Positions 30,901 through 63,833 of a stretch of 64,000 nucleotides of DNA are shown here, in pieces. The DNA lies in assembly GCA_040954595.2 (NCBI GenBank), contig CM082597.2, forward strand, positions 7,832,343 through 7,896,342, given 5' to 3'. The notes beneath the pieces were generated by a model. That model worked only from the letters and a program-made list of their open reading frames with translations, was not told the origin of the DNA and ran no database searches. The position numbers were made by a program, and so were the translations under genes. The DNA is from Balanoglossus misakiensis (lineage: Eukaryota; Animalia; Hemichordata). How positions within the stretch are numbered: the stretch's first letter is position 1; every line of letters starts with the position of its first letter.

Positions 30901-30946
30901 TTTGACCTATATATACAGCTTGTGGGCATTGTTTGCAGGTGATTGT

Positions 30947-33418: not shown

Positions 33419-33640
33419 AACCTGCTTGTGTTAAGGAGGACGGTTTCTACAGAAGTGGCAATGATATAGACTACGGATATCTCAAAGATACCGCTGATGA
33501 GTGTTGTGAGGATTGCAGGAGTAACAGTCTGTGTCTCGCGTGGCTTTACTACAAGAACACCAAAGTATGTTGGTTGAAGAATGGAGTCCCTGAGAAGTTC
33601 TCGAATCCAGATTTTGTATCAGGAGTTATTGTAAGAGAGG
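33419..33640 (+). CDS. PAN/apple domain exon, variant 1 (phase 1-1)
   Basis: cag|AA..EPACVKEDGFYRSGNDIDYGYLKDTADECCEDCRSNSLCLAWLYYKNTKVCWLKNGVPEKFSNPDFVSGVIVREG|gtaagt; G.DI, CC..C....C.AW, CWLK, VSG PAN_4 signature. Confidence 0.88.
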
Positions 33641-33973
33641 GTAAGTATTCGCTCATCATATTCATCAACGTTCATTGTGATTGCAATTGTTTGCTCTAAT
33701 GTATCATGTGCAAATACTCCAAATGTCTCAGATGAAATACTGGCATAAATTATTATGTTTGAATGGTTTATGTGGTCCTGAATCGTCTAAGATTATAGAA
33801 CAGCTTGACCAGGTTCACAAGGTGTAAAATTTGAGACACTATTAAAAGCAGATCTGAGATTATTTAAAGCTTACATTTTTAGCCAGTTGTAGCTCATGTG
33901 GCTTTAATGCGTCTATCATGATTTGTATCACTAATGTACGTGAATGTGTTAAAGAACACCAATCATCATATAT

Positions 33974-35083
33974 CACTTTCCCCGATCCCTATATATGGAA
34001 GTGCTCATTAATATTTAATTATGAAAGCGCCCTCGAGGTCAGACAAGTTTTTGACCAATCAGAAAGCAGCTATTACGCTCGTAGTGTACAAGTACTTTGT
34101 CTTTTCATGCTTTTGTTCCGGGTTTTATATACCCCATGTTTCTCACTCTGTAAAACGAAATTCTGTCGGCTAAAAAACTTGCCCGCTGGTATATCGATTC
34201 TTTGACCCCGAAGCAACAAGTTTACCATTGCGATTGGATTTTCACCGTTGCTTTGAGGTTTGAGGCCGTCGTGAATCACGGCGTGGCCATGGGTCTAGCC
34301 AAGCACGAAGACATTTCTCCAGGAATCACATCAGGTAGTGATACCGCAAAATGGGGACTTTTGGCGTCAATTTTGTTATTCATTGCGGTGATAGGCGTCG
34401 GACATCGGAACATGGGTGGACGATATACACACAAGTGCGCCAATCCGTACCATGAAGCATGGACAGGGCATATGCGCTTAATGCACAGATATGTTTTTGG
34501 AAGGAAGGAATGGTCATTAAGCCATGCAAACCAGGTACTGATCGATCAAGTGTCAATGATGTCGACATCACACTGAATAAACCCAATTGACGAACTATAT
34601 AAACCAATGTAAAATATCGACGAGAATTTTATGAAGTACAAGCTTTTCCGTGTCTCCTCCGTTGTACATGCGTTCTTCTTGTATACATCGATCGTACACA
34701 GTTTTGCTTCATGTCCATGACGTTGATCTGGACTACTACATGTGTAACGACACAGAAGGTCGGGTGCCGCTCCGTGTGTGAAAACTTCGCTTGTTATTGA
34801 CAGCTAACATTTATCTAAAATTGCCAATGAGGGCTTGATCAAAGACAATAAAATAACAATGAAAACCGCTTTCCTGAATATCAGCAATCAGATCAGAAAG
34901 ACGGAGAAGAAACAGTGCACAAACACATTAAAACGTCGCGCGGCACTTGCAGTTGACTTCAGGTCATCTGACTACTCTTTAATATGCGCACGCATTTGAT
35001 TGGTCACTTCAGTAAACTTTCAGCACCTTTGACCCTATATGAATATTAATGAGCACTTCCATATATAGGGATCGGGGAGAGTG
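33974..35083. mobile_element. Non-autonomous CAC...GTG (CMC/Transib-like) DNA element, 1.1 kb; second copy at 62283-63392
   Basis: TATAT|CACTTTCCCCGATCCCTATATATGGAAGTGCTCATTAATATT...AATATTAATGAGCACTTCCATATATAGGGATCGGGGAGAGTG|TATAT. Confidence 0.8.
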
Positions 35084-35238
35084 TATATTGCAATCTGTAT
35101 TCAGCATGCAATGTTTAAAATAGCCTTTGATACGCACTCTGGAAAAACTAGTAAAGGCCCGCTTAATGAGTGGTAATGCATTATTTCTTTTCTAACAGTT
35201 TTAGTTTATTTCTTTGCTAACTAGATCCTCTTTTACAG

Positions 35239-35478
35239 ACATAGAAGATCCTATCATATCCTGTCCAGAAAGCATAGAAGCAACAACAACCCTTATGGAC
35301 TCCACTGCAGTCGTCACCTGGCAACCCCCAGATGCATCTGATAATTCTGGGGATGTTTCTGTATCTGCAAGCCATGAGCCTGGAAGTAATTTTAACATTG
35401 GTGTGACTGTTGTGCGGTATATAGCTCGAGACCCTACAGGAAATAATGCTTCATGTTCATTCAGTGTGACAGTAACAG
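35239..35478 (+). CDS. HYR (hyalin repeat) domain exon, copy 1 (phase 1-1)
   Basis: DIEDPIISCPESI...VVTWQPPDASDNSG...GSNFNIGVTVVRYIARDPTGNNASCSFSVTVT; cag| and |gtaaat. Confidence 0.9.
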
Positions 35479-36015
35479 GTAAATATCCTACCCAAGACTT
35501 ACATGTTAATGTTCACTAAATCCAAATTAACAATTGAAAGAACAAAGTGGAACAACACCAGAGCTTGGCTGTCTGAGGCGGGAACACCTCGTTTATTACA
35601 GGTGACCCGCAAAAATGGCCACAAAATCGACTTAATACAAAACTGTATCATAGGAAGCATATGTAACACGTGGCTAATGTATAACAAGTACATGAACCCA
35701 TGGAAAGGGTGGGCGGGTGTGGTTGCGAACGCAGGCTAACCCGTCTTGAAGTTTGATGTCAAAGGTCACAACACTTAAACTTAATTACTCCCTTTGAGGG
35801 CGCTCCACTCGCTCCCCCAAAGGGTCACAATTAACTATTGAAAGAACAAAAGTGGAACAACACCAGAGCTTGGCTGTCTGAGGCGGGAACACCTCGTTTA
35901 TTACAGGTGACCCGCAAAAATGGCCAAGGATGAAAGACGGCCAAGCTCTGAACACGCCAATTTGTAAAAGTAGCATGCAGAAGGCATATTACATGTGGCA
36001 AACAAGAAAAGACAA

Positions 36016-37045
36016 TCAACCCTCGAAAGAGCGCAAAAAAACATTAATGCGTTCTGAAACCTCAACCCTTTTTGAAAATGGTATCTCCAGATACAAAAGG
36101 TAAGCCCCAGATTTCCAGTCCCCATGACTTTGTACAAGCTCCCCACAAACATTTGCTGAAAAAGCAGCTGTGGCACCCCCTCTGCGAAAACTGTGGCCAG
36201 AAAAGGACCGTGATGGGTAACCGGCTGTATCCAGTAGAGACCGGAGTTTAGTTGTGAAACTATGGTGGGTTAATGTTAACAACCCTGACCTGCCGGGGTA
36301 AACAAATGCTGGGCTTGCCATAGGGGCAGGGATGGCGCTGGTCATCTGGCGTAAAGCAGTAACTAGATACAGTGGTGAACCTGGCATTTGTAAGATTGGA
36401 ACTGAATGGATTGTGGCCCGACACTGGTTGGTTTTGGACCATGTGGTAGCGATAACAACTCCAACTGATGTGAATTTGAAGTTGCGACGGGCTAGGTGTT
36501 TAGATGGGTCAAATTTATTTGGGCTCGGGGGAACCAAGTTAGACTTGCGCAAGAATAAATGGAAGGCCGTGAGAAAGGCTGACCAAAGTGTGGTGTCCAA
36601 CGGCTTTGACAAATCCAAAAACTTGTAAAGGGTAAGCAAGATAGAAGGCGTGATGGCTAATTTGCATTTGGGAACTTGAGGGTAGGTGTGTGCGATGCCC
36701 TGCAAAGTTAAACGTAAAAACAGATGGTGAACCACTTGCCCGTCAAAACCATTCAACTCGTGTAGCAGGCGAACTGCATTAAGGTAGTTTTTCAAGGTAC
36801 CAACATTTCTAATTGTTGCTGATAAACACTGAACGAACAAAGACAAACTGGTTGGGGAGGCAGGAACTGGCTTCAAACCATAGAAAATGCAAAACAGGAA
36901 GTAAGTCTTCCACTGCGAGTGAAAATTTGAAATTGTCCCATGTGCATAAGCAGCGGAAATGATAGAGGTCTACTTTCGGTGGAATATTCTTAATCCTTTG
37001 TTGAAGACTTCTGCTCCTGTGAAAAATGGAGAAAATACCAGTCAT
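36016..37045 (-). CDS. Ngaro tyrosine recombinase (N-terminus frameshifted; 36016-36876 open)
   Basis: FLRKSNL, WSKTNQ, HSFRRGGAT, HGDWKSGAYLLY catalytic R-K-HxxR-H/W-Y motifs. Confidence 0.9.
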
Positions 37046-38052
37046 GAGTGAAATTGAATAATGTGCTGTCGACGTACTTTTCTGTCAATTGTTTAGCCCC
37101 TGTCAATTCTATGAATTTGGCATGGCTACGATCATCGGTGTCCCAATGGCTAAGTATGTCTGCAATACGATTAGAAGCGCCGCTGACATGTACTGCCTTG
37201 ATTTGAAACTGATATTGGGCAGCAACGAACCATATTTGCCTTGCGCATTTCAACATGAGGGGATCTCTCGTACGACGGGAGTTAAGGACGTGAACGGTGG
37301 CTTCGTTATCACACTGAATGATAAATTGTCTGCCCGTTAGTTGAGTGGCCCACAGTTTACATGCAACCATTACAGTCAAGAATTCTAGAATGCTGATGTG
37401 GTGTTCTTTGTCACGAATGGTTTGGGGAAATTGGCAAATACTCATCCAGAAAGGTGCCACCAGCCCCTAGTAAGCATGCATCTGCAGTTGTGAGAAATTG
37501 GTCTGGGAACCCCCAATCCCCAGTGGGTAACATTGATATACCATTGAAATGCTCTAGGTATGAGGTCCACCACAGAATATCTTTTTTGAACTCGGCATTG
37601 ATATGGAAACGATGATGTTGACGTCGCAGCGTGCGCAACTTGTCTAATAACCTTGAGATAAAGACCCGCCCTGGCCTGACGCAACCTGCCAGAAAGGCCA
37701 GTTTACCGATCAGGGACTGTAATTCTCTTTTATTAGACCGTTTCCTAGACAACCACATGGGGAGGTACTGTTTAGTTTCTTCAAGTTTCTGCTGTGGCAC
37801 ACTCATAGTCATGTCGATAGTGTTGAATTGCCGACCCAGGAAGGTCATTACTGGGGACGGGGAACAAGCTTTTCCCGGTGATTCATCAAGACCAAGCGCA
37901 ATAAGTAAATTGCCCAACTGAGTGAATGCAAAATCAGCCTTATCGACTGATTCCGCACCGGCAAAATCATCTAAATAATTCACACAATCGCTTCCCTCCT
38001 GTTGTGATATATACCGGACTGCATTGGTAGTACGCTGGCATGCAATGGAGGC
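36990..38052 (-). pseudogene. Ngaro RT C-terminal half and RNase H (frameshift near 37450)
   Basis: NYLDDF, LQSLIGKL, TADACLLGAGG, HISILEF, CDNEATV, NRIADILS. Confidence 0.88.
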
Positions 38053-38590
38053 TGTTACGTTTAGCCGGTTCGCTCAGGATTTTCTATATAGGGTAAATCA
38101 GACAGCCTGGGGCGACACTGGATTGTGAAATAAACAGCAACGATTTAATGCTCACCACTCAATACAAAACTGCTGGGAGGGAGGCAGCGGATGATGGTGT
38201 GTTGTACGATGGCTCTCAAACAATGTTTGTTATGTCTTTAGATCTGTTCTCCTCCGAGTCTATTGATCGATTGTGTACGAGGCAGCCATGTTTGTCCGGT
38301 CTCCGCCAGCCTACCCACAATTCCGGAGTTTATGCATGCAAGTACTGGGTGCCCCAGCGCCATCTACGGCAAAGCCTGACTAATCTTTCTTTTGTATGTG
38401 TCGATAAGCAATAGGTGTAATGGTTCGCACGGTCCGCATCACACTGCCCCCTCCTAAAAAAGAGTTATCCGTCCCCAGATAACATTACAACAAGCAACTA
38501 GAAATAGCAGAACAAGTAATAAACAATGAAACTCTGGTAGGTCCAAAAAAATTGTCAACAGGGCAAATATCGCCTGATCAGGCATGTCCT

Positions 38591-41500
38591 TTACAGCTCC
38601 TCAACGAGACGTCTTGGAGGTTTCCGTGGTCTTCTACTTCGACGCATGCCTTCGGCGCTCACAGCACTCCCATCTGCCTCCAAAGCATGGGTAAGTTTTG
38701 AGTCCTCTTCAACGGACACATCAATGCCAGAATCCTCCAAGGCGTTGTTAGCATCTGGTTGCAGATGTGCAGTCGTGGGCCCATCCAGTGCGGACTCTGA
38801 AATGCTGCCACTAATATCAGCTTCGTCAGCAGGCAATTCCTCCATGCAGACATCAGGTCCTCTGCTCTCATTAGGCTGTAGCCAGTCGGCTCTCCAGACA
38901 CTATGGACGATCTTGGGTTTGGAACGAGGCCCTCTCTGGATTCTATACACAAGATCGTTTATGCAGTCAACAACACCATATGGGCCCTCCCATGGTTTTG
39001 CGAGCTTCGGCGAAAGGCCTTTCTTATGCTGTGGGTTATATAACCAGACACCGTCGCCTCGTTGAAGCTTTGGTTGCCCTGCCCTGGTATCGTATCGGCG
39101 CTTCACTCTGTCACTGCTCCTCTTGATGTTGTCTCTGGCAAATGAGTGAACATTTTGCATTCGGTCTTGCAATACTCCGACATACACACCATGAGACTCA
39201 GTTTCCTCCTCTGGACGACCATATACCAGATCTACTGGAAGTTTCATCTCTCTCCCCAGCATCATCATGGACGGGGTGAAACCGGTAGTCTCATGGACTG
39301 CAGTTCTGTAGCTCATCAGGAGGAGAGGCAGATGTTCATCCCAAGTTTCCTGGTGGTCCTCGACAAATATCGCCAACTGATTCTCAATGGTCCTGTTGTA
39401 GCGTTCCACCATTCCGTCTGACTGGGGGTGCAGTGGGGTCGTCCTCGTCTTTTGTATCCCAAGAAGCCCGCACATTTGCTGGAACACAGCTGCCTCGAAG
39501 TTTCGGCCTTGGTCAGAGTGTAATTCCAGAGGAACACCAAAACGACTCACAAACTCATCAACTACCTTCCTCGCTACTGTTACTGCTTCCTGATTTGGTA
39601 TCGCAAAACCCTCTGGCCACTTGCTGAAGTAGTCCATGGCGATGAGAATGAACCGATTTCCTCTTGGCGTCTCAGGAAGGGGACCGAGGACATCGATGGC
39701 CAACCTTTCCATGGGCGCGCCCACATTGTATATGCCGAGTGGCGCGTGCTTCTTATGATATGGCCCTTTCCGTCTGGCACACTGCTCACACTTCTTGCAC
39801 CAAAGTTCCACAGACTGTCGACACCCTACCCAGTAAAATCAATCACTCACGCGAGACAACATCTTCTTGACAGACCAATGTCCTCCTGTACGGGTATCGT
39901 GCAACTGCTCAAGAACTTCTTGCTGTCTGGCTTTGGGTAGTATCAGTTGTCTCTGGATAATACCACCCTCTGGCTTCTCCCATCGGCGATAGAGTACACC
40001 CTGGGACAGTTCAAGAGAATCCCATTGCGACCAGTATGCTTTGGTGGCGGGGCCATATGGGGACACTACACTCCATTTGGGACGCTCTCTTGAGTTATCC
40101 ATCCACAACAGGATCGGCCTGATATCAGGATCCTCTAACTGGGCCTCACGGAGGTCTGATTTCTTCTCCTTGTCAGCATCATGAGACTCATGTTTCGCTT
40201 CTACCTTCCTGGCCACAGAGCTCCCATCCCCACCGTACGGTTTCTCAGGCAGCTGTCTCAGCGACCTCTCATTCTGTTGTTCACGTCCTTCTTGCCTATC
40301 ACAATATTTGCATGAGTTTCCACATGGTCTGCGAGACAGGCCGTCAGCATTGAGATGGCTCTGTCCTGCCCTATGCTGGATAAGGAAGTCATACTCCTGG
40401 AGTTTCTGGAGCCACCTAGCTGTCTGCCCCTCTGGACTGTGAAACTTCATAAGCCATTGTAGCGCTGAGTGGTCTGTTCTCACAGTAAACCTCCTGCCAT
40501 AGAGATAGTGGTGGAAATGGTCGACCGCCTTAACCACAGCCAGTAGTTCTTTGCGAGTAACACAGTATCGCTGCTCAGGCCCATGTAGCACACTGCTGTA
40601 GTACGATAGCACACGCTCTTCTCCATCCTGTTGTCGTTGGGAGAGGACTGCCCCTATTGCACCCTCACTGGCATCCGTGTCGACAATCAGGGGTCCATCC
40701 GGCTGAGGGAAACCAAGAACTGGAGCGGACGTCAACTTCTGCTTCAAGACATTAAATGCCGTCTCGCAATCCGCAGTCCAAGAAAACCTGTGGCCCTTCT
40801 GTGTGAGTCGGTGCAGGGGTCTAGCTATTTCAGCAAATGATGCCACAAACCTGCGGTAATATGAACAAAACCCAAGGAATGCTCGGACTTCCTTAACATT
40901 GGATGGAGTTGGCCATGTGGACACTTCCTCCGTCTTCTCCGCATCAGTCGCCACACCAGCTTCGCTTACAACATGTCCTAGGAAAGCCACTTGACGTCTG
41001 AACAGCTCACACTTCTTGGGACTGAGCTTCAGCCTAGCTTTCCGCAAACGGTTCATGACCTGTTTCAAGTGGCTCATCTCCTCATCGAAGCTCTTCCCGT
41101 GCATGATGATGTCGTCAAGATAGACCAAAACCACAGTCCATGGCAGACCTCTCAGCACCTGCTCCATCAGCCTCTCAAACGTGGCAGGCGCGTTACATAA
41201 TCCGAAAGGCATCACAACGAACTGCCACAAACCACTTCCTGCGGTAAAACTGGTCTTCTCCCGATCTTCCTCAGCCACTTCGACCTGCCAGTACCCGCTC
41301 TTAAGATCCAGGGTGGAAAACCAGGAGGAGCCCGCTAGAGAATCAAGAGTTGCGTCAATTCTGGGCAGTGGGTATGAGTCCTTCCGGGTAACCTCGTTTA
41401 ACCTCCTATAGTCCACACAGAAACGCGTTGATCCGTCTTTCTTTCTAACTAACACGATAGACGATGCCCACGGGCTCTTTGACGGCTCTATAACTCCCTC

Positions 41501-42589
41501 TGCATACATCTTGTCAATCTCCGACAAGGCTTCAGCTTGTTTCACGGGCGGCAGTCTCCTTGGTCGCTGTCTGATAGGTGCTGCGTTTCCGGTGTGTATT
41601 GTGTGCTCAACGATAACTGTTTTACCAAGGTCCTTACTGCCCTTGGAGAACACATCCTGAAATTCTTTCAGGAATTTCCTCAAAGAATCACATTGTTCTC
41701 GAGAAAGTCCATTGCAGCTTCGGTGATATAGATCCTCTAAATAGTCTGGCATCCTAGATTGGTTCCTGTCAGCAACGGGGTCCTCCACCGGCACAGACCC
41801 TCCATCTGGTGCCTCCACACTGCAGACAGTCTCAACAGATCCCAATGTATTGCCTTTCCTCAGTGTTCTCCTTTGCTGAGTTACAGTCATCAGCCGCACT
41901 GGAACGCAATCGCCACTGGTATCAACCAGAGTCTTCCCAACAACAACGCCCTTACAGCTGAAACTCTTCCCAGGTTCTACCAATCCCCAGCCACTGTGCC
42001 GCTTAGGTCTGGTCATTCGGCCTTGTATGATTGCTTTGCTCATAGGTGGAATAGTGACATTCCTATCGACCACCACTCTGCATAAAGTGAACTCCTCTTG
42101 AGTCATTGCTGCCCTAGCTGGCTGATCAAAGGGGACATCTTCATTACCAATCCGCAAACATCTGTGTATCAGGTCTGGCGTACTGTTGTGCTGCGCGAAG
42201 AAATCAGTGCCAAGGAGAACATCATCTGAAATGTCAGCTACCCATACATTATGGTGTACAATGGTTTTGCCAAGTTGAATGGGCAGTAATCCACGTCCCT
42301 TCACAGGTGATGTACCACCGCAGGCTGTCTTTATGTAGACCTTGTCTGTAAGTGTGATTGTTGGCGGTAACTTTCTCTGCCGCATAAGTACATCAGTCTT
42401 TATGATAGTCGCGTCAAACCCGGTGTCCAGCACAATCTTACAGGGAACGCCATCAACAAAACCGCGTACTATGGGCGTAAGGTCAGGTCCAGACACATGG
42501 CCTGTGCGAATGATAACATCAGGGGCAATGTCCTTATCAATAATGCCAGCTGAGTTCTGCCCCGCGAACCCAGCTCCTACTCGTTTCCC
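38591..42589 (-). pseudogene. Gypsy pol (PR-RT-RNase H-IN), with one in-frame TGA at 39839-39841
   Basis: LDTG protease, YLDD RT, DTDAS...ELLAVV...TDHSAL RNase H, H-H-C-C, DVLGP, HSDQG, ERYNR integrase, GPY/F; ORFs 39839-42496 and 38591-39811 are in the same frame. Confidence 0.93.
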
Positions 42590-44166
42590 GAAACAGTTGT
42601 TGGCACCGCTGAATCACGCTTTTCCTTTGGGCAGTCTCTAGCAAAGTGGCCCACCTGGTCACAATTCCAGCATTTCTTGTCCTTCGAGGGCTGGTTCTTT
42701 CTACGCACTGGTCCACTGGGCCTAGCCTCCAGCTTGTCCATTACCTTTTGTAGCATCTGGCTAATGTGTCCAAATAACTGGCCGGTTTCATCACGATCTG
42801 CTGCCACATTGGAATCACTTTTGTCAGGGGTGCAGGTCCTTCGTACGAGGTCATCACTGTGGGTATTGCGTCCCCTAGTCTTACTTGCGATCAAAAAGGA
42901 CTCCAACTCCAATGATTTTTTCGGTTTGGCTTGTCTCAGGCGTAGCCGCATATCGTCGTCATTCACCGCATCAACAAACTGGTCGCACGCCAGGTTATCC
43001 TGTAATTCGCTAGACATGGTCGGATATGCCAATCTTACCAATCGCTCAATGTCACCAGCCAACTCAGGTAGACTTTCCCCCTTGCGTTTCACCCTATTCT
43101 CAAAACGGACACGGGAGAGGTCAGTCTGGTGCGCCGTACCATATCTAGCCGACAATGCCGCCACCAAGGACTGGTAGTCTTGACGTTTCTGCCCAGGTAG
43201 GTTACTTAAAACGGTTAGGGCAGGTCCTTTAAGATTAGATGCCAGATACAGTGCTTGCTGGTGTTCATTCCAACCATTCATCTGTGCCACCAGCTCGAAC
43301 TGCGCCTGATACGCCTCCCATGTGGTCGATCCATCGAACGCCGTTGGCCTCTGAAGTGGTTTGCTGGCATTATTAAAGGAGCTGCAAAGTGCTGATTCCG
43401 CCTGGCGAATTGGAGTACCCACCGGCCTTGGGGCAGAAATGTCCAAGGGGATTGGCTTTGACATGAACTGTGGACTGCCACTAGAGGGCGCCATCACCAA
43501 TGGGGTAGATGTGTGTTGCATGGCACGTCCATATTTCCCCTGGGACTCAGGATCCATAGCAGGCTGTGGCCCTTTAACGTCAAATGTTTCCTCCAATCCA
43601 CACATTCTTTTCTCAACCCTCTCCTGATTAAAGGCGACATCCTGCCTTAGCTTTAATTGTTCATCACTCATTCTCTTCATCTGATCTCTCATTTCTTGTA
43701 CCGTAGCTGTCACTGCAAGCATGCTTTTCTCCGTCTTTTCAACTCTCGCATTTGTGGCTTCATGTCGCTGTATTACTTCGCTCATCCCTCTACTCATTTC
43801 ATGTTGTGATGTTAACACTGTCTGGAAATAGCTTGTAAAATCTTCCCGCATACTGTTAATGCTATCACTGGACTGGCTTTGACTCATTTGCTGGGCAGCA
43901 ATGAAATCATCCCACCTTTGTTTCTGGTCTGCGTTCATGTCCAACAGAATCTGTCCCGTCGGAGCTTTCGACAACTCAACCCCCGATGCGTGGGTAGGCT
44001 GGACGCTTTCTACATCAGCTGGCTGTATGTCACTCTCTATCAATGTGACCTCTGGAAGCAGCAACTGTGTGGCGTCACATGTTTCTCCCATACCAGAATC
44101 CACAGCGGGTTTGTCAAAACCACCAGCCTGTCCCTTGAACATAATTTCGTGGCTATCCTCCATCAT
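42577..44166 (-). CDS. Gypsy gag (529 aa)
   Basis: FDGSTTWEAYQAQFE...NGW, CWNCDQVGHFARDC CCHC knuckle; starts just after the PBS. Confidence 0.92.
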   Translation of the reverse strand: MMEDSHEIMFKGQAGGFDKPAVDSGMGETCDATQLLLPEVTLIESDIQPADVESVQPTHASGVELSKAPTGQILLDMNADQKQRWDDFIAAQQMSQSQSSDSINSMREDFTSYFQTVLTSQHEMSRGMSEVIQRHEATNARVEKTEKSMLAVTATVQEMRDQMKRMSDEQLKLRQDVAFNQERVEKRMCGLEETFDVKGPQPAMDPESQGKYGRAMQHTSTPLVMAPSSGSPQFMSKPIPLDISAPRPVGTPIRQAESALCSSFNNASKPLQRPTAFDGSTTWEAYQAQFELVAQMNGWNEHQQALYLASNLKGPALTVLSNLPGQKRQDYQSLVAALSARYGTAHQTDLSRVRFENRVKRKGESLPELAGDIERLVRLAYPTMSSELQDNLACDQFVDAVNDDDMRLRLRQAKPKKSLELESFLIASKTRGRNTHSDDLVRRTCTPDKSDSNVAADRDETGQLFGHISQMLQKVMDKLEARPSGPVRRKNQPSKDKKCWNCDQVGHFARDCPKEKRDSAVPTTVSGNE

Positions 44167-44606
44167 CTCAGTTTGTCCGAAATTATAGAAAATCCCACTT
44201 CTGACACCAATGTTACGTTTAGCCGCTTCGCTCAGGATTTTCTATATAGGGTAAATCAGAAAGCCTGGGACGACACTGGATTGTGAAATAAACAGCAACG
44301 ATTTAATGCTCACCACTCAATACAAAACTGCTGGGAGGGAGGCAGCGGATGATGGTGTGTTGTACGATGGCTCTCAAACAATGTTTGTTATGTCTTTAGA
44401 TCTGTTTTCCTCCGAGTCTATTGATTGATTGTGTACGAGGCAGCCATGTTTGTCCGGTCTCCGCCAGCCTACCCACAATTCCGGAGTTTATGCTTGCAAG
44501 TACTGGGTGCCCCAGCGCCATCTACGGCAAAGCCTGACTAATCTTTCTTTTATATGTGTCGATAAGCAATAGGTGTAATGGTTCGCACGGTCTGCATCAC
44601 AGAGGC

Positions 44607-45640
44607 CATTCGTAACCCAAAGGGCAATTTAGTGTCAAAGAAAATCATTTCTCTCCACCTGTACCCCAATAGGAAATAGTCGTGCGGATCGACAGGAATT
44701 TGGCGGTAAGCCCGTTTCAAATCACGCTTGTAAAGTAGACAACCAGGGACTTTTATTCTGATAAGCTTAGTGAGATCATCGACGCCAGGGTAAGTCAAGG
44801 AAAAAGGCCCGTCCAAATAGAAATCAGAAGGTATCCCATCATTCACTGAGTGGCCGATAGGGAAACTCAGATCGATAACCACCCGCCGATCCGGCGAATC
44901 CTTCTTGTCAACAGTTTGAAGCGGTGATAACATAAGAGGTTTGTCAAAGGGATTGTCGTGAAAGGGCCCGACTGAACCGCCTAGGGCTACCTCCTTAGAG
45001 ATATATCTGTCTACATGAAGATGAGTTCCATTTTTTATTGGTATGCCCAGTATATCAGTGTATTAGAGAGAGATTTATCCCAAAATTCTTCTATGACACA
45101 CCCCATGAGTGGAAATTTACTTTATTACTTCAGTCAAACAAACCATACATAGTACAAAATCTTGCCAGATACATCTTTTATGCTTTTAAACAGCGACATA
45201 AACTCCTGGATGATGATCCAGAGTAAAACTGTACGAGGAACGAACCCTCAAGCGACTGTAAATTTTGATATTCTTTTTTGTTGTGTACAATATGGCTGGT
45301 GGCCAATAGTACTGAATAAATGCATTATATATATCTGTCTACATGATCTGGGTACAGCACTGCTGATTTGTGGTTGGTGGAAACTGGAAGTGGGTGATGG
45401 GATAATGTGTAATTCAATGGCCATCCAAATTCTAAGAAGTCACAAATCTGCGTAGTCATCATACCCTTGTAGTTTAGCTCGCCAAATTGGAATGCATAGA
45501 TTTGACTGAACTGGAACGCGGTACCCTTTGTAATTGGGTAAATTTGAATTGTAAATTTTGACATGATTTTGAATAGACAGTGAGGCTGTGGGGGACAATG
45601 GGGATGGCCAATACTCTATTGGGATGTGAGCGCTGTGACT
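44607..45640 (-). pseudogene. Ngaro RT N-terminal half, interrupted by a LINE stub
   Basis: PNYKGYRVPVQS, CDFLEFGWP, NHKSA, GPF, RRVVIDLSFP, KRDLKRAYRQIPV, LPFGLR. Confidence 0.85.
45019..45328 (+). mobile_element. 5'-truncated non-LTR retrotransposon (RTEX-like C-terminus) with 18-bp TSD
   Basis: (E)DEFHFLLVCPVYQCIRERFIP; AATAAA near the end; TSD atatatctgtctacatga at 45001-45018 and 45329-45346. Confidence 0.85.
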
Positions 45641-50661: not shown

Positions 50662-50908
50662 AGTCTTTATGGTCAATAATCAATGAATTTTATAAAAAAT
50701 ACAACACAACAGTATATGTGAATTAAACAAATTTATTATCAAATGGTCAACATTATAGACAAAATCTGGGGTGTAGATTTAATGTACATCATATAAATTT
50801 CTGTATATTTAATTTAAATAATTTAAATAAATACAGTGTTACATTTATACTAATATATTATTTCAATGTATGATATATTATTTTTATACAAACATTTAAA
50901 TATAATAT

Positions 50909-51278
50909 GATACATGTTATGTGTATGGCAGTTCTAAAGACTAAACATACTCAGAAAAACTTTTACAGGAAGCTGAAATATTGCTTGCCCGTCATTTGGA
51001 AATGACAAAGACTATGCAGACAAAACTCCATGAGGCTGATAACGCACCATACCTGATACATGTTACGTGTCTGGCAGTTCTAAAGTAAAAACATACTCAG
51101 AAAAACTTTTACAGGAAGCTGAAATATTGCTTGCCCGTCATTTGGAAATGACAAAGACTATGCAGACAAAACTCCATGAGGCTGATAACGCACCATACCT
51201 GATACATGTTACGTGTCTGGCAGTTCTAAAGTAAAAACATACTCAGAAAAACTTTTACAGGAAGCTGAAATATTGCTT
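50909..51278 (+). repeat. 146-bp tandem repeat (about 2.5 units) derived from the ISL2EU MITE
   Basis: cagttctaaa at 50929, 51075 and 51221; the unit matches the interior of 24900-25040. Confidence 0.85.
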
Positions 51279-51528
51279 TTTCATTTTGGCGAGTTTTTCA
51301 CACTCGTGTCTACAAGTGGGATGGAAGTTGTGTGTGGTCGAACGTTGGTTCACTATATATCCAGTAGAATGACATAAATGGTGTCTTGTATCAAACATAA
51401 TTAATGGAAAAAGGGCCAGCGAGAGGGAGACTTTGTCCCTTTAAGAGGGACGCTAGTTACATCACAATTCCCAGCAAGGGGTATGGGGTTTTATTTATGG
51501 GGTTTTATTTATGGGGTTTTATTAAGAA

Positions 51529-54214
51529 TTACTCTAAAGGTACAATGGACTCAGACAGGTTTGTTAGGGCACAGCATATAACTCCAATTTTGTCAATGAG
51601 GCTCAATGACTTCCCCTTTTTTTTAACCAAATACTCAATTGGCAATGCTCTGCTCTGCATGACCTGATACTTTCTACGAACTAACCCAATCACTCTTTCT
51701 ACATGTATGCGAACACTTGCTATTTTTCTTGTTTTTTCAACCTCATATGGGGATAATTGTTTCTTTCCTCTTGTGAAAGCAGGGATTTGCAGTGAAGCGC
51801 AATAAAATCCAACACTGTCTTCAATGGTGAATCCACGGTCTGCAAGTACAATATCACCAGGCAAAAGATTGTTTAAAATTCCACTTTTTTCAGTTATTTC
51901 TTTATCACTAGCCCTACCACCCCAAGCCTCAGATATATATGTAACAAGTCCATTTGGAGCAATGCCAATGAGAAATTTAACAGTATTGTGGTGCTTATAA
52001 TTTGACCAGGTTTGAGCTCTTGCTAACAAATTTGATGGCCGCTCAACAAACACTTCAAAACAATCAATTATTACTGAAACTTTGTTTCCAAATGATTTCC
52101 TAAAATCCATGGGCATTGTAGCTCTAAGCATATCCCTATCTGGCCACTCAATTAGAAATTTCAACCTGAAATACAAGACATCAATCCATTTGTTCCATAT
52201 CCTTGATGCAGTCATCAAGGATATGCCAAACCTGAAGGCTAAATCTTGCAGAGAGAGATTTAAACGGAGACGCATAAAAACTAAAATCATTTGTTCAAAC
52301 TTCCCCAAAACAGATCGATGTGTATGATTTATGTAAGATTCACATAAACTGAAAATCTGCATCAAAACTAAAAAGTTTGGAATGCCAGTGTAGAATTTTG
52401 TCTTTTCATCATTTGCCTGAAATGAACTTTGATTCAACTGTGTGTCCAAAACTTTGGCCCTAAGATTATAAAGTTCAGAGTTCACTCTCATAAAATCTTC
52501 TTCCATCATATCAAGATGGCAACCAGTCAGGTCAGTTTGACATTCTGCGTGCACCATGTGGGAAGCTGCATGGTCTGTAAGAAAGAATTATATTCAAAAT
52601 ATATAGTGTAAGTAAATGGACTATCTTAAAATAGAAAATGTCACAAAATGTGCATAAATTATTACAACATAAATTATTGCTTTACTTGAAGCCAAACATG
52701 AACATGTATGTATGTCTATTCAGAGTTGAAAATAACTACCTTTATTAATCACTGGGGAGTCAACTTGGGTTTGAAGACTGCATTCCAATCTCAATTTCTT
52801 GTGAAAATGAAGCAATGCCTCTGCACCTTCCAAATGCTGTCTCTTCGCAACACGATTTTCTCTGTTCAGAAGACTTAGTGGTTTGCGTAGAATCTTCTGA
52901 CCTCCGAGATTGACAGTAGGGACCCAATCCACATCCTCATCTTCAAATAATTTACTCGGATAACCTGCCATACAATGATAAATCATATGTGTGGGCATGA
53001 TTGACAAACTTCATGGTTCATAAAAAAACAAAACAAGTACAATGTATATAGCATAGAGGTCTTCCTTCCTGTTTGTATTGTGTATGTTTGTTTATTGTTA
53101 TTGATATAATAAACAATAAATATGTTTGTTTACAAATATGGTCACATAAACGTAACCCTATTAAACTGTTGAATACACCCTAACCCTAACATGTCAATAA
53201 ACAAACGTGACCATATTTGAAAATAAATAAATAAATAAACAAACAAACAAACAAACAAACATTAATCAATCAATAACAACAAACTTACACACTACAAACA
53301 CAGAGGAAGAGCTCCCCATACAACCAAATAGTTATACAAAATGGAGCAGGGTCTATCAGCCTACATCAAGGCTCAGACATTTATCTCCGACCTGAGATGT
53401 GCTAGGCACTTTAATATGACAAAATCTACTAGCCTGCGTACAGGTTTATGTGTTACTAGTAACCGTGGCTGGGATAAACTCGCGTCGATCTCCATGGATA
53501 AACACAAAAGACAGTCACTCAACTGTGCAGAAAAAAGGACAAAACTTAGGAAGCGATCGGTTTATGAAACCTTTTGTTTCAGAAACTTCAGTGATAAACG
53601 TATGCGAGGGCTAAATCAAGTCAACGCAACGTACAATGATGTAAACAAACAGTGACCTCGCGCTACGGTCATAATCATGTCCGTTACTGTACAAAGTTGC
53701 CAAAACATTGCTACATGTTAAAGTTTATGAAACCTTTTGTTTCAGAAACTTCAGTGATAAACGTATGCGAGGGCTAAATCAAGTCAACGCAACGTACAAT
53801 GATGTAAACAAACAGTGACCTCGCGCTACGGTCATAATCATGTCCGTTACTGTACAAAGTTGCCAAAACATTGCTACATGTTAAAGTTTATGAAACGTAT
53901 CCGTACATCAATCACACAACGTAATGGCTCATGCTGTTGAACCGCATTTTTAAAACATTGGTACAGATGAGATTAGATGTCTACATACCTTTTATGAAAT
54001 GATCACTACATACACGAGCGTGAAGAGATTCCGCCCCTTTCGTACCAGATTCAGACAGGTTTGCAAGCCATTCTTCACGCCGCTGTCTACTCAACTTTCT
54101 CGCTTTTTCACCCTTGTGCACAACTTCCTTTGGTACTCTAAAAAATCTCTTTTTGACTTCTCTGAGACTATTAGACCGATTTGTACAGCCAGGCACGTAA
54201 CATGTATCAGGCAT
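51529..54214 (-). CDS. ISL2EU transposase: THAP, coiled coil, HTH, DDE_Tnp_4; 3 exons
   Basis: Exons 54214-53989, 52964-52740, 52574-51529 (phase 1 throughout); CYVPGC..FFRVP..W..RVCSDHF..DWVPT; [44 protein letters not shown]. Confidence 0.92.
53560..53896 (+). repeat. Perfect 163-bp tandem duplication in transposase intron 1
   Basis: gtttatgaaac at 53560, 53723 and 53886. Confidence 0.9.
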
Positions 54215-54936
54215 GGTGCCTCATCGATATCAGCCTCATGGAGTTTCGTCTGCACAGTCTTCGCCTCATCAACAGTTGTCGTCTGCTGCACACTGCACGC
54301 GCGCCACGCCGATTTGCCCGTCATCTGGAAAATTTGAATACCCACGTGCCCGATTTGCCCGTCATCTGGAAAATTTGAATACCCGTCTGAGCGCGTCTGA
54401 CGTCATTTGATAGTAAAGAATATTAAAATTCTGTTACCATAACGACGGATAGCAGATTTTGCGAAAATCACAAAAATAAGAATCCTGCTATATCTTTGCT
54501 ACCAATTAAGCTTTAGATAAAATTTAAACACTCAAACTTATAATGTCGGGTGCGAGCTTTTCATTGCTAACTTGAACTTTGGGGTTCAAGGTCAAGGTCA
54601 TCCTCAAATTTCAGGTCAAAGTGACAAAATGGACATTATGGACTTTTGTTCAAAATGACATTTTACGGCGAGCGTTTACTAAACACTGTTTGGGTCTAGA
54701 ATGCTATAATTTGATCTCCAGATACAGATGTGTATTGTTTACAAAGATTCTAATTTGTTTTGCTGTTTACATATACTTAATATGCAAAACCAGCTGTTAT
54801 AATAACAACAAAATGAATGGTAGGAATAGCAAGAGTACTCATACAGTTAAAATGAGATATTTCAGGTTCTGAGAAAGCTAGAGAAAAAAATTAAACATTC
54901 AGTTTTATAAAGTAGGGTACGGGCTATCCAATGATT

Positions 54937-55150
54937 ACATTCTCACATGCTGCACCGAAACTGTGGAACTCTCTGCCACAAGACATTCGTCAAGCTCCAA
55001 GTTTGAGTATCTTTAAGAAAAGACTGAAGACGCATTATTTCGCAAGAGCATATGGTGTGGGCCAATGAGCACAAGCGCCTTTGAGTATGACACTTGTTAT
55101 AGATACTGGCGCTATACAAATTTCTCTGATTGATTTCTCTGATTGATTGT
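54937..55150 (+). mobile_element. L2/CR1-group LINE 3' end
   Basis: FSHAAPKLWNSLPQDIRQAPSLSIFKKRLKTHYF...; 3' agcgcctttgag...ggcgctatacaaat; (ttctctgattgat) tail. Confidence 0.8.
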
Positions 55151-56000
55151 ATTAACAGCAGGTAATCAAAGATAAACCGTCTTCTTCATTTTTGTCATGT
55201 TTTTACATTGCTGCAAGTCATACTATGATAGAAGCACTAACACGGTTTGTCAGGTTCTTCTTGTATAATTAGTTGCTCAGAAAAAAACCCCAGCCATTTC
55301 TTTTGATATAGTAATGTTGATAGTTGCTTAAATGAGGGTCGGAAAGATCAAATGGGTCGACAAATGCTCCACCTTGTAATTCTTAAAGCTTTGCCACATC
55401 AGTATTCCATCTCTTAATGACTGCTTTTCCATATCGGATCTTATTTTGTTTACCAATACTGCATATTTATTTGTGAAATGTATCAGAGAACTTTGCAGTA
55501 ATCGGTCCACCCAAAACCACTTTTCAAGTGCTAAACCTCTCATCTTTAATCCCATGACACCACCAGCACCCTTTAGTGAATCGTCAGATAAGTTTGCCAT
55601 GAAATCCCCTTCATTTAATGACTCTTGTACACTTTCGGGTATTATATGCATCACCAGAATAAGTACTGACATGTATCTTGCATAGTCCGTTTCGATTGGC
55701 ACAAAACAACAGAGGTAATAATAGCTGATTCTTAGCAGTTTGGCAAATATCTCAATCACCATTTCTTAATGTACTTACATTTCTACCGGTGGGTAGAGTT
55801 TTAATGGCAGCAATACTCTACACAAAGTCATACCAAAAGTTAAAAGTTACTCCTCTCTTGTCTAAACTCAGCCATAAGCGGGAAATGATGTTCAATGATG
55901 TGTTCCACAAAATTGTGAACTATTTCCAAAAGTTCATTAGCAGGCTGGGAAGTCAAAAGATCACAATCCATCTCAGGCATTGACTGTGTTCCCTACCTTT
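55150..56000 (-). pseudogene. Degraded Academ-like transposase fragment
   Basis: DYARYMS...P.SVQE.L.EGDF...KGAGGVMGL....LEKW resembles the NYAR/GG.IG motifs I associate with Academ transposases; frameshifted. Confidence 0.55.
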
Positions 56001-56389
56001 ACACCATGATAAAAAGTTGCAGACCCTAGCGCTGGACGTTTCATCAGCAAGATGGAGGCCATGCAATGACAAACAACCGGAAAACATTTTCACATGAGCA
56101 AACGTTTTTTTTTAAAAACGTAGCATTCATTTTGTATGATTATGAATGATTGTGATTTAAAAACATTGCTTTTGAGTATATAATGTGTCTTAAGTGCTTT
56201 ACGCACAATTTCCAAAAAATCTCTGTGCCTAAAACACAGATATTCGATCGGGTTGTCTGGACTATTGCCGCAGTGGCATCATGGGATAACGCATAAATCA
56301 GCATGACTCGCACTCCCACGGTCGCGTTTTTTTATATAATAATATCCAGAAGTAAAAGTGGCATCTTATTTACATATTAATATAAAAAT

Positions 56390-58300
56390 ATACAAAATTA
56401 TAGCATTCTAGATCCCAACAGTGTAGTAAACGCTCGCCGTAAAATGTCATTTTGAACAAAGTCCATAATACCCATTTTGTCACTTTGACCCGAAATTTGA
56501 GGATGACCTTGACCTTGACCCCAAAGTTCAATTTAGCAATCAAAAGCTCGCATCCGACAATATAAGTTTGAGTGTTTAAATTTTATCTAAAGTTTAATTG
56601 GTAGCAAAGATATAGCAAGTTTCTTATTTTGGGGAATTTCGCAAAATCTTCTATCCGTCGTTATGGTTACAGAATTTTAATATAAATTACAACCAAAGAC
56701 GAAAATAGGCCTATTTTACTTAAAGCTAATATTCCTTGCTACCTGATGACCAATTTACAGCCTCCTCGAGCAAACCGTTTTCCAGTAAATCAAACTATGT
56801 ATGATCGATATGCAAAAAATAGCGAAATTTTCACTTTGACCCCAAGTTTTGAAGATGAACTTGACCTACTGAATGTTTAATTTTTTTCGCTAGCTTTCTC
56901 AGAACCTGAAATATCTCATTTTAACTGTATGAGTACTCTTGCTATTCCTACCATTCATTTTGTTGTCATTATAAGAGCTGGTTTTGCATATTAAGTATAT
57001 GTAAACAGCAAAACAAATTAAAATCTTTGTAAACAATACACATCTCTATCTGGAGATCAAATTATAGCATTCTAGACCCAAACAGTGTTTAGTAAACGCT
57101 CGCCGTAAAATGTCATTTTGAACAAAAATCCATAATGTCCATTTTGTCACTTTGACCCGAAATTTGAGGATGACCTTGACCTTGACCCCAAAGTTCAATT
57201 TAGCAATCAAAAGCTCGCACCCGACATTATAAATTTGAGTGTTTAAATTTTATCTAAAGCTTAATTGGTAGCAAAGATATAGCAGGATTCTTATTGTTGT
57301 GATTTTCGCAAAATCTGCTATCCGTCGTTATGGTAACAAAATTTTAATATAACTTAATATCAAAGACGTGAATCAGCTTATTTTTCTTAAAGCTAATATT
57401 CCTTGCTACCTGATGACCAATTTACAGCCTCCTCGAGCAAACCGTTTTCCAGTAAATCAAACTATGTATGATCGATATGCAAAAAATAGCGAAATTTTCA
57501 CTTTGACCCCAAGTTTTGAAGATGAACTTGACCTCTGACCTTGTCGGTCGTGTAATAATTGGATAGCCCGTACCCTACTTTATAATACTGAATGTTTAAA
57601 TTTTTTCGCTAGCTTTCTCAGAACCTGAAATATCTCATTTTAACTGTATGAGTACTCTTGCTATTCCTACCATTCATTTTGTTGTCATTATAAGAGCTGG
57701 TTTTGCATATTAAGTATATGTAAACAGCAAAACAAATTAAAATCTTTGTAAACAATACACATCTCTATCTGGAGATCAAATTATAGCATTCTAGACCCAA
57801 ACTGTGTTTAGTAAACGCTCGCCGTAAAATGTCATTTTGAACAAAAATCCATAATGTCCATTTTGTCACTTTGACCCGAAATTTGAGGATGACCTTGACC
57901 TTGACCCCAAAGTTCAATTTAGCAATCAAAAGCTCGCACCCGACATTATAAATTTGAGTGTTTAAATTTTATCTAAAGCTTAATTGGTAGCAAAGATATA
58001 GCAGGATTCTTATTTTTGTGATTTTCGCAAAATCTGCTATCCGTCGTTATGGTAACAGAATTTTAATATAACTTAATATCAAAGACGTGAATCAGCTTAT
58101 TTTTCTTAAACCTAATGTTCCATGCTACCTGATGACCAATTTACAGCCTCCTCGAGCAAACCGTTTTCCAGTAAATCGAAACTATGTATGATCGATATGC
58201 AAAAAATAGCGCAATTTTTACTTTGACCCCGCGTTTTGAAGATGAACTTGACCTCTGACCTTGTCGGTCATGTAATCATTGGATAGCCCGTAACCTACTT
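56390..58300. repeat. About 719-bp tandem subterminal repeats (about 2.7 units) of the right Academ-like arm
   Basis: attatagcattctaga at about 56397, 57061 and 57780. Confidence 0.88.
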
Positions 58301-61300
58301 TATAAGACCCAATGTTTAAATTTTTTCTCTAGCTTTCTCAGATCCTGAAATATATCATTTTTTAACTGTATGAGTACCCCTAAAATTATGCTATCGTTAC
58401 CATGACAACCGCTCCTCACGGCCACACCCACCATTAATATGAGTGCAAACAACCTGATTCTGACAGCTGGATAAATAGGCTTTCCAAAAATATATGTCTG
58501 CAAAACTCCCCAGGGGGGGGGGGGGAGGGTTTCGGTCTCTGGCCCATGGACTAAAGGGTTGGGTGTGAAAATTGAACAGTGGAAATGTTAACGGGAATGC
58601 AAATTTGTAAATGGGTAGTGGACTGCAGAAAACTGACAATTAATTGTAGTGTGACATAAAACTGTAGTCCCATATCCACACAGTCGAAATGTTCGATTAA
58701 CTTCAGTTCATCTAATTCATGTTAACGGTTGTTTTTATAGTTTGCCTTTTAGGGCTGTCACGGTAAAGTCAGTTATGGAATGTCCTGGTCTGTTGAAATG
58801 TTCACTAACGGGTTTGTGTATATTACCATTCTGTATGTCAAATCTGTGGTTGTTTAAAAAACTTGAATCCTTAGGACAACTTGTAAATATGTGATGACTA
58901 GAATCACTAAGATTTACGATTGTAAAGACATACTGCAGAAGGAATAAAACTATAGGATAAACGATTAGTACTAGCAGATATAGATCTTAACCTTTTTCCT
59001 GATGGTAAAAAATGCAGAAACTCGTTAACAGGATGGTAACAGTCATTAATAATACTGGTGATACGTTTCTCTGTACGTTTTTCAAAGATGGTCTGAATGT
59101 TATCCATCTTCACTCCAATGATGTAAGATGCCGTTTTAACAACACGATTGAGCTTTCAGTAATGACTGTCCAGTTTGACCTATATATACAGCTTGTGGGC
59201 ATTGTTTGCAGGTGATTGTTTAAATGAGGTTGGTTGAGTCACAGGTGAAATATCCTCTTATTCTGTAGGTGTTATCATGGGGTCCAGTGGCCGTGTTGAT
59301 GTGGGGGCACAGTTTGCACCTTGGTTTCTGACAGGGTACATCTCCGTGCGTTTGGTTGGCGGTGTGTAATTTGATGAAGGGGACTACATGTTCCCGAAAG
59401 GTCATGCTGTAGTTTTAACTCGTTGATCACAGAGTGCTACATAACTTTAATTCATATTGTACTGAAGATCAACACGGCAATACTCCTAATTGTTAAACTC
59501 TGATCATGCATACATTGTAAAATCGCAAAGAGCCCATTCCAGGAGGGGAGGCTGAGGGGAGACAAAATGCTGCCTAATTTGGTTAAGTAGTTTATAGAGA
59601 TCTATGAAAACACTTGTACCGTAAGTGTTGTGTATTGTCAAGTAATATAGAAATAATGGAAGACGCTCTGACCATTAACGTTTGTTTATTGGCAAGGGCG
59701 AGAGGAAAGCCAAAAAATCATGGGCGAGTTTTCCGAGCCCATGAATTTTAGCTTTTCTCTAGCCGTCAAAATTTAGAAAATGTCAACACGGAACTTGAGT
59801 TACGCAAAATGTTGTATTCACTGAACTGTTTGCTAATAATACTATTCAGATTTACGGGCATGTAAACAAACCATTACTGAGTATTTGTGGTCAGTGACGT
59901 TGTTTATCTCGACCAATTAAAATGCGATGCACAGGCCATGGTAATATAATATCAAGTGGAGATCATGAGCATTTAATTTTTGATTGCAAATGCAGTCTAT
60001 GTTGTCAGGATCTCACCACAACAGGTGGCACTGAAACACAACCGCCAGCCCATGAAAAATGCTCCACTTGAAGACTCAGCTAGGTTTATCGTTAAAGCAA
60101 GACCTGAACGTTTGCATATGCAAGTTTTAACAAGATAAATAATGAGGCTTTGCCGAAAAGGAATATGGCTGCCGCCGTGGAAAAATACCAGAAAATGTTG
60201 CATTTCCGACTATGGAACTTCATAAAAAAAGCATAATCTCATCTACTATAGATCTCATGGAAATTAATGTATTCCACTGAGACATACCCGGTATTATTAT
60301 ACATCTAGTGCCGAAAACAATAGATTTTGGCGTGCAATAAAAAGCCGTACGGAACGGTACGTACGGAACGCGCGTTAAATAAGTTTTAGGTTTCAAGGCG
60401 CCCCAACTCACCGTGTACAGGTATGCGTTGTTATGCGGACGGTTTCAAGGCGCCCCCACTCCAACGCACGTGCGCACACGTAAACAAAAAAGAAAGATGG
60501 CTGCTCACTGAGTCAACTGAACGGTTTTCGATCGATTGTATCGGCATTTTGGGCGTTTTGAAAGCCAAGTAACATGCACAACAAGAACTAACGGAGATGT
60601 AAGATGTATAATAATAAGGTTATTACGAAAATACCGCAAAGTATGCACTCGGACATTAGCGCAGCGCATAGCCCTCCGCTGCGCGTCGGGCGATACTCAG
60701 CGCTAATGTCCTCGTGCATACTTTGCGGTATTTTCGTAATAACCTCATATTATTATACATCTGGCACCGAAAACAATAGAATTGAGCGTGCAATAAAAAG
60801 CCGTATGGAACGGTACGTACGGCACACGCGTTAAATACGCCTTAAGTTTCAAGGCTCCCCAACTCACTGTGTACAGGTATACGCTGTTGTGCGGACGGTT
60901 TCAAGACACCCCACTCGAACGCACGTAAACAAAAAAGAAAGATGGCTGCTCACTGAGTCAACTGAGCAGTTTTCGATCGATTGTATCGGCATTTGGGTCG
61001 TTTTGAAAGCCAAGTAACATGCAACACGAGAACTAACGGAGATGTAAGATGTATAATAATAAGGTTTTTACGAAAATACCGCAAAGTATGCACTCGGACA
61101 TTAGCGCAGCGCATCGCCCTCTGCTGCGCGTCGGGCGATAATGCGCACTAATGTCCTCCTGCATACTTTGCGGTATTTTCGTAATAACCTCATAACATTT
61201 TCATTTTTCAGTGGAATATTGCACTCTTTAAAAATTTCAGGAATTTTTGACTCTACTCATATTTCTTCAATTTTTGGGGCATTTTGTCATAAGTGTTGAT

Positions 61301-61721
61301 TTAGATATAATATCACACAATATCACTTGATTGACAGAATTAAAAGCACATCAGATTATTTAAAGCTTAAATTTTTAGCCAGTTGCAGCTCGTGGCTTTA
61401 ATGCACGTATCATGATTTGTATCACTAATGTAAGTGAATGTGTTTAAGAACAACAACAATCATATTTTTTTAATCTATATTCAGCATGCAATGTTTAAAA
61501 TGACCATTGATATGCACTCTTGAATAACTACTAGTAAAATTCCCCTAATTAAAATATGCTCTTGAGGCAAGTATGAGTGGTAAATTTATGTAAAATATGT
61601 TTAACTGCATTACTATGGCATACAAGATTTTCTTGCAAAACACATCGGGTAAGAAAGAGATATTTGTCATGCCACAATTTTCTCATCATGTTAATCCATC
61701 ATTTATCTGTAAAACCCACAG

Positions 61722-61949
61722 AACCTGCTTGTGTTAAGGAGGACGGTATCAACAGACGTGGCAATGATATAAACAACGGACAAGAAAATCTCAAAGATAC
61801 TGCTGATGAGTGTTGTGAGGATTGCAAGAGTAACAGTCTGTGTCTTGCGTGGACTTACAACCCGGACACCAAATGGTGCTTCCTTAAGAATCCAGTCCCT
61901 AAGAAGTACTCGAGCTCACATACAGTATCAGGAGTTATTGTAAGAGAGG
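61722..61949 (+). CDS. PAN/apple domain exon, variant 2 (phase 1-1)
   Basis: EPACVKEDGINRRGNDINNGQENLKDTADECCEDCKSNSLCLAWTYNPDTKWCFLKNPVPKKYSSSHTVSGVIVREG; intact splice sites. Confidence 0.88.
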
Positions 61950-63787: not shown

Positions 63788-63833
63788 GTAAATATCCTAC
63801 CCAAGACTTACATGTTAATGTTCACTAAATCCA

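Follow-up and report, generated by a model that had tools for sequence, protein, structure and literature searches.

Why should two copies of one gene module be nearly identical in their introns and yet differ strongly in a single coding exon? The question is raised by a direct duplication in a 64,000-nucleotide stretch of the genome of the hemichordate Balanoglossus misakiensis (GenBank assembly GCA_040954595.2, contig CM082597.2, positions 7,832,343 to 7,896,342, forward strand), here called the window, where each copy carries an exon for a PAN/apple domain followed by an exon for a HYR domain. The features on which the argument turns are the following.

30281..35691, plus strand: module copy A, consisting of intron, PAN exon, intron, HYR exon and the end of a DIRS-like element
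58554..64000, plus strand: module copy B, which runs off the window at its end
33419..33640, plus strand: PAN_4/apple exon A, phase 1-1, 73 whole codons; Pfam PAN_4 32.4 bits; predicted local distance difference test (pLDDT) 94.3
61722..61949, plus strand: PAN_4/apple exon B, phase 1-1, 75 whole codons; Pfam PAN_4 41.5 bits; pLDDT 91.8; top Foldseek match SML-2
33445..33615, plus strand: island of divergence, holding all exon differences between A and B, and the split point of contigs from three public runs
35239..35478, plus strand: HYR exon A, phase 1-1; Pfam HYR 83.2 bits; same sequence as in copy B
63548..63787, plus strand: HYR exon B, same sequence as HYR exon A

Global alignment of the two copies gives 55 substitutions, 34 of them within the 222 nt of the PAN exon and 21 in the remaining 5,189 nt (0.4%), a strong excess in the exon (Fisher p=2e-34). 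The original prediction, made by hand alignment, had reported about 34 substitutions and an in-frame 6-nt indel in 222 nt between near-identical introns, and the alignment returns the same figures, that is, about 15% divergence in the exon. All 34 substitutions and the indel lie within 33445–33615; the first 26 and the last 25 bases of the exon are the same in A and B, as had also been seen. Contigs of the three public sequencing runs (X1, X2 and X3) likewise branch into alternative versions within this interval. The other young duplication of the window (24342–26263 against 27365–29286) served as a control: its 1,922 nt contain 25 differences, and no 222-nt stretch holds more than 7. It has no comparable peak. 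The contrast between exon and flanks is real and cleanly shaped. Further downstream, A and B show no difference at all over 34512–35691 (1,180 nt, HYR exon included), for which the average flank rate gives P=0.008, and this segment is a possible recent conversion tract. Direct copies of a 137-bp repeat, 88% identical, stand on either side of the PAN exon (33030–33162 and 33835–33971) and could serve as seeds of exchange; pieces related to the same repeat precede the HYR exon (35042–35153).

Both versions of the exon have AG/GT splice sites and open frames, score above the curated Pfam PAN_4 cut-off of 27 bits, and retain six of six cysteines, in agreement with the earlier claim. The tally of 20 codons with a changed residue and 4 purely synonymous ones was also reproduced. 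Randomly placed changes give a mean of 4.5 purely synonymous codons against the 4 observed, and Nei–Gojobori (NG86) pathway counts give 6.7 differences at 43.5 synonymous sites (proportion pS 0.153) and 27.3 at 175.5 nonsynonymous sites (pN 0.156). The synonymous divergence of the exon exceeds the flank rate about 40-fold (6.7/43.5 against 21/5,189; p=2e-9), which means that the exon interiors and the flanks differ in age and that a burst of selected point mutations does not account for the contrast. The PAN exon versions are old and their flanks have been homogenised. Intense positive selection on new point mutations after a recent duplication might be read from the 20 of 24 changed codons that alter the residue, but a synonymous divergence of 15% beside flanks at 0.4% contradicts it, because hitch-hiking cannot create a 40-fold excess; we give this explanation almost no credence.

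The divergence has not been free. The shared core was defined as the 18 columns conserved across 32 distant PAN domains. When the 34 changes were placed at random 20,000 times, the exon stayed free of stops with all cysteines in 1.2% of placements, and the whole shared core was retained in 5e-5. The PAN domain is thus still under constraint.

The public runs extend the comparison beyond two copies. X1, X2 and X3 come from one study and are recorded as one sample of unrecorded library type, and two of them contain 0.64 and 0.41 of the sampled words. Variants were read from the listed contigs only, with letters and linkage assigned by depth rather than phased, and contig depth is not calibrated to copy number. 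The contigs diverge inside the PAN exon and merge again in the flanks. At least eight distinct 3′ halves of the exon, in about four deep lineages, occur across the three runs and the A and B of the window, which supports the pool of PAN variants and the homogenised flanks that had been proposed. In X1, a 5′ half (record 3, depth 194) equals in depth the sum of three 3′ halves (79.7, 62.2 and 52), which have 14, 17 and 1 differences from A. One X1 3′ half is that of A but for 1 of 123 letters, and stands behind a 5′ half unlike that of A, a linkage inferred from depth. X2 contributes two more 3′ halves, with 22 and 17 differences, and, as record 10, a paralogue with unlike flanks, while X3 adds a further version with 24 differences. 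The attribution by depth explains 17 of 17 differences in record 12, 24 of 24 in record 17 and 16 of 17 in record 5.

These variants are mosaics. Besides the swapped 5′ and 3′ halves, the site pair 33540/33570 shows all four combinations among A and records 5, 12 and 17, with the letters again assigned by depth, which bears out the mosaic tracts that had been foreseen. By hand reading, codons 12, 18, 42, 46, 49, 60, 62 and 65 each show at least three amino acids. Conversion targeted to the exon, as the same prediction had offered, is not borne out: one 5′ half sits behind two intron types, near-window in X1 and with about 10 differences in X2 (sites within 33315–33396), and exchange must therefore also occur at or beyond the exon edge. 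At intron positions 34741, 34747, 34978 and 34996, all aligned depth of X1 and X2 is unlike both window copies (the copies being unphased). Four letters shared in this way would fit the expectation from concerted evolution, and because of them X1 and X2 are probably animals other than the assembled one.

An assembly artefact, in which two haplotypes or chimeric repeat copies were joined in tandem, has to be considered at this point. The flank divergence of 0.4% is near the heterozygosity of acorn worms, reported as 0.5% and 1.3% (PMC4729200), no aligned contig spans A or B, and neither exon is whole in the runs. We nevertheless judge it very improbable: A and B have different left neighbours, B begins precisely at a transposon end, the independent contigs repeat the structure of alternative exons, and the 3′ half of A is present in X1. 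Since the same structure recurs in independent contigs, the exon pattern would stand even if the tandem layout were wrong.

The island, the equal synonymous and nonsynonymous divergence, the many variants between shared flanks, the mosaic halves and the kept core together support concerted evolution of a repeated PAN-HYR module, in which selection keeps alternative PAN surfaces apart and exchange in the middle of the exon makes new combinations. We consider this the probable explanation, and we infer conversion and unequal exchange among the copies as the cause, with selection for differing binding surfaces. Short-tract gene conversion would homogenise the introns and most of the HYR exon. Tracts would begin in the intron and reach as far as the outermost selected codon, those crossing it being purged, and the purging would leave a sharp island within which synonymous changes hitch-hike. 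Exchange across the conserved middle, the helix region, would reshuffle the 5′ and 3′ halves.

The same exon could also have been imported neutrally. In that case a recent duplication, perhaps linked to a transposon, would have been followed by conversion that overwrote the exon from an old paralogue with introns too diverged to align; homology alone would have set the limits of the tract, with no selection for diversity. In its favour, the first base of copy B adjoins the transposon end, the runs contain diverged paralogues whose flanks differ (record 10 of X2 and a diverged HYR class), PAN dN/dS is close to 1 and the ratio in HYR is no different, and a neighbouring exon pair coding for WxxW domains presents a small version of the pattern. 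Neutral import is harder to reconcile with at least four deep PAN lineages between shared flanks, when the main HYR class is one contig with 1 difference over 160–319 nt in X1 and X2, or with the eight codons at which at least three residues were read. Old paralogues under purifying selection alone usually have a dN/dS well under 1, which likewise counts against neutral import. On balance it is unlikely, though it is the main rival.

A more specialised alternative is a dedicated diversifier, that is, cDNA-mediated or enzyme-triggered conversion of the PAN exon, possibly somatic, comparable with chicken immunoglobulin, variable lymphocyte receptors (VLR) or the fibrinogen-related proteins (FREPs). 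The borders of divergence lie inside the exon, X1, X2 and X3 are recorded as one sample although their variant sets differ, and there are retroelements in the locus. However, the upstream introns of X1 and X2 differ as they would between different animals, the same exon half stands behind two intron types, the mutation spectrum is ordinary (hand-counted transitions 15/34 within the exon and 10/21 outside), and no third PAN copy is present in the window to act as a donor. Adenine-directed mutagenesis is opposed by the variable sites, 17 of 40 of which lack A in every version observed (hand count). We regard such a device as quite improbable. A diversity-generating retroelement was rejected on the same site count, the lack of a further exon copy in the window, and reverse transcriptase open reading frames (ORFs) of LTR (long terminal repeat) or DIRS-like type.

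Several results weigh against concerted evolution with selected PAN surfaces. The dN/dS of A and B is 1.02–1.09 depending on gap placement, i.e., about 1; pN/pS is 0.072/0.164 in the core and 0.182/0.149 elsewhere, so that dN/dS outside the core is about 1.2, from 4.7 synonymous differences only; and for record 17 of X3 against A a hand count gives about 0.8. Strong diversifying selection in the sense of dN/dS above 1, as first supposed, is not what these ratios show. Among the contigs listed, neither the 5′ half of A nor that of B occurs, the sequence is present in one study only, no transcript joins PAN to HYR or to a candidate leader exon (no RNA run is listed), and HYR is detectable in none of the best 150 of the PAN matches. 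The HYR exon also varies: X1 is polymorphic in its last third, and the ratio of nonsynonymous to synonymous changes among the listed run variants is 15:5 in HYR and 24:5 in PAN (p=0.72). At the level of the family, this counts against variability restricted to the PAN exon. The identity of HYR that had been noted is correct for A and B, where it is expected from the intron rate alone (P=0.38), but not across the runs, which contain a diverged HYR class with 33 and 24 differences. The main HYR class forms a single contig in each of X1 and X2, differing at 1 letter in 160 nt and 1 in 319 nt, respectively; the X3 contigs gave no HYR match and are uninformative here. Between shared flanks the PAN split is thus deeper than that of HYR, yet the variation is not confined to PAN.

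Where might selection act on the PAN domain? Both versions are modelled confidently as apple folds (pLDDT 94.3 for A and 91.8 for B) with the six cysteines in place, and the fold is kept as had been expected. With B as the query, Foldseek returned 2 of 397 matches at E<=0.001, the best solved match being the Sarcocystis lectin SML-2 at a template-modelling (TM) score of 0.73–0.75; TM against SML-2 and the factor XI apples is 0.73–0.80. The variable residues 44, 46, 51 and 53 of B alternate on the adjacent strands 42–46 and 51–55, whereas W43, Y45, C52, L54 and K55 are invariant. This alternation of strand positions, from which alone the arrangement is read, suggests that the variable residues share one exposed face. 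B positions 12, 46, 53, 55 and 62 align with the presumed galactose-pocket residues of the fifth apple domain of MIC4; in that presumed pocket four of five positions differ between A and B and the lysine is retained. K55, which follows the last core cysteine and is invariant, aligns to the binding lysine of MIC4 apple 5 (2ll3 alignment), presumably K469. MIC4 apple 5 binds galactose (PMC13672358), and K469M abolishes MIC4 binding (bioRxiv 10.1101/187690). The PAN-HYR proteins may accordingly have a lectin-like role in recognition, as far as a predicted structure can suggest. The immune, allorecognition or gamete function first proposed is a conjecture at this stage. The apicomplexan lectins SML-2 and TgMIC4 share the apple fold and the aligned binding lysine with the PAN domain, but the identity is 23–26% and glycan binding by PAN is putative.

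A far stronger version would be a variable lectin repertoire, with secreted (PAN-HYR)n proteins whose apple pocket is re-dealt by conversion aimed at the exon, the set differing per animal and possibly per tissue. We think this improbable. If true, no such diversified recognition system would have been described before, either from hemichordates or on a PAN-domain basis.

The closest relatives among the matches examined lie in another acorn worm. A PAN profile search gave 1,803 matches, and among the best 150, which were examined, the nearest were the uncharacterized Ptychodera flava proteins XP_070554976.1, XP_070554994.1 and XP_070555069.1 (36–44% identity); the other named matches among them were algal or bacterial. 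The P. flava best matches carry two or three tandem PAN repeats, and one cluster member has eight. They resemble the present locus in that their tandem repeats are almost identical and vary in segments that overlap, and differ from it in that the models lack HYR and the repeats differ less among themselves. Their repeats vary in columns that overlap the variable ones of A and B (p=0.017–0.079 in four tests), and general tolerance of loops could account for the overlap. The eight PAN repeats of XP_070555069.1 are themselves patchworks drawn from a small number of segment types, and a tail rich in Pro and Thr comes after them. Judged by its proteins alone, from these PAN matches and from a thrombospondin-like exon closest to Saccoglossus kowalevskii, the window is probably from an acorn worm. 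A cluster look-up of a P. flava repeat and of the HYR exon found generic PAN and HYR clusters only, and a word-based homologue search, which is weak evidence, found PAN in 0 of 5 candidates and HYR in 1 of 51, with non-matching domains.

The evolutionary mechanism itself is textbook. Interlocus gene conversion with a peak of divergence is described for primate red/green opsin exon 5 and for the colobine RNase (PMC3924837), which like the present copies are tandem duplicates separated by tens of kilobases, their introns homogenised and a single exon diverged; those, however, are two fixed paralogues, while the PAN family has many segregating and recombining versions. Conversion also yields haplotype variety in the major histocompatibility complex (MHC), plant R-gene and self-incompatibility clusters (PMC3924837). 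These share with the PAN family many mosaic variants, several residues per variable codon and a putative ligand-facing domain, and differ from it in that its fold is PAN/apple, its dN/dS is about 1 and its role in recognition is putative. SpTransformer (Sp185/333) and the snail FREPs are comparable as invertebrate multigene families diversified through duplication and conversion; the proteins are unrelated, and in those systems immune induction and somatic change have been demonstrated (for FREPs, PMC7588048). KRTAP1 has the opposite pattern (bioRxiv 10.1101/282418) and the VERL repeats have no introns between them (PMC2704960). By analogy the process is likely a known one, of the opsin exon 5 or MHC type, in a hemichordate example that is likely undescribed.

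Hemichordates are placed between echinoderms, with SpTransformer, and chordates, with VCBP (variable region-containing chitin-binding proteins), VLR and immunoglobulins. In the literature searched, the PAN-HYR family is undescribed and no variable recognition system is described in hemichordates. Our search found no paper on hemichordate PAN-HYR proteins, though supplements of genome papers could list the family. In a 2026 review of animal immune diversification, 'hemichordate' and 'acorn' are absent from the main text (PMC13428168). A polymorphic, mosaic family of apple domains with identical exon ends is easily amplified and is a candidate for tests of recognition diversity in hemichordates.

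How are A and B arranged in a gene? The best of three distinct candidates for a first exon, in about 40 kb scanned, lies upstream of copy A.

29957..30008, plus strand: candidate leader (first) exon, with ATG, hydrophobic stretch and phase-1 donor AG/GTAGGT

A TATAAA stands upstream of it at 29845, and two short ORFs also precede it. The candidate lies 273 nt outside the duplication; if it is real, copy B lacks a leader and represents a further repeat inside the one gene. In one X3 contig the sequence departs from the PAN exon precisely at the donor site and goes on with Asp and a stop, as a spliced mRNA would. The continuation has no match in the window with up to 3 mismatches, nor does AG/ATTAA occur there, and the terminal exon must therefore lie elsewhere. 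Judged from sequence features, A and B are probably repeated PAN-HYR modules inside one gene for a secreted protein, and a layout of leader-(PAN-HYR)n-PAN-stop would fit.

The space between the two copies is filled by transposable elements.

35525..47071, minus strand: DIRS-like retroelement, provisionally so labelled, with reverse transcriptase/RNase H, CCCH and tyrosine-recombinase-like ORFs
38053..44601, minus strand: Gypsy-type LTR element lying inside the DIRS-like one, with LTRs of 98% identity and a target duplication GAGGC
47072..58553, no strand assigned: DNA transposon of 11.5 kb, with 486-bp terminal inverted repeats and DDE_Tnp_4, THAP and YqaJ-like ORFs

The end of the DIRS-like element near 35525 is common to both module copies. 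Its recombinase ORF (36016–36969) has no Pfam match and carries what we take to be a tyrosine-recombinase motif. The DNA transposon has TA on both sides and internal tandem arrays. Copy B starts immediately after its right end, and the duplication junction coincides with that end, so the transposon may have created or bridged the duplication. The terminal repeats of the transposon (6/486; p=0.024) and the LTRs of the Gypsy element (8/391; p=0.0006) are more diverged than the module flanks, which suggests, though weakly, that the flanks appear younger than the locus.

Other genes of the window lie upstream of the modules. Tandem WxxW (Mucin2_WxxW) exons at 18726–19081 and 19280–19634 differ in 50 of 266 exon letters (pS 0.22, pN 0.18), and a piece of their upstream intron resembling a miniature inverted-repeat transposable element differs in 3 of 86 (p=2e-4), so that the inverted relation of exon and intron is repeated on a small scale. 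These exons were tried as the start of the PAN-HYR gene and rejected, as the second ends in a stop. A minus-strand, frameshifted fragment of a protein kinase (23376–23707; weak Pfam PK_Tyr_Ser-Thr, E=0.06) adjoins the 1.9-kb tandem duplication 24342/27365. At 261–12617 lies a multi-exon thrombospondin-like gene (EGF, type-3 repeats, TSP_C, LamG), orthologue-like to LOC100367144 of Saccoglossus kowalevskii; one of its exons is 78–80% identical to S. kowalevskii and 59–63% to echinoderm proteins (11 matches among 18 candidates).

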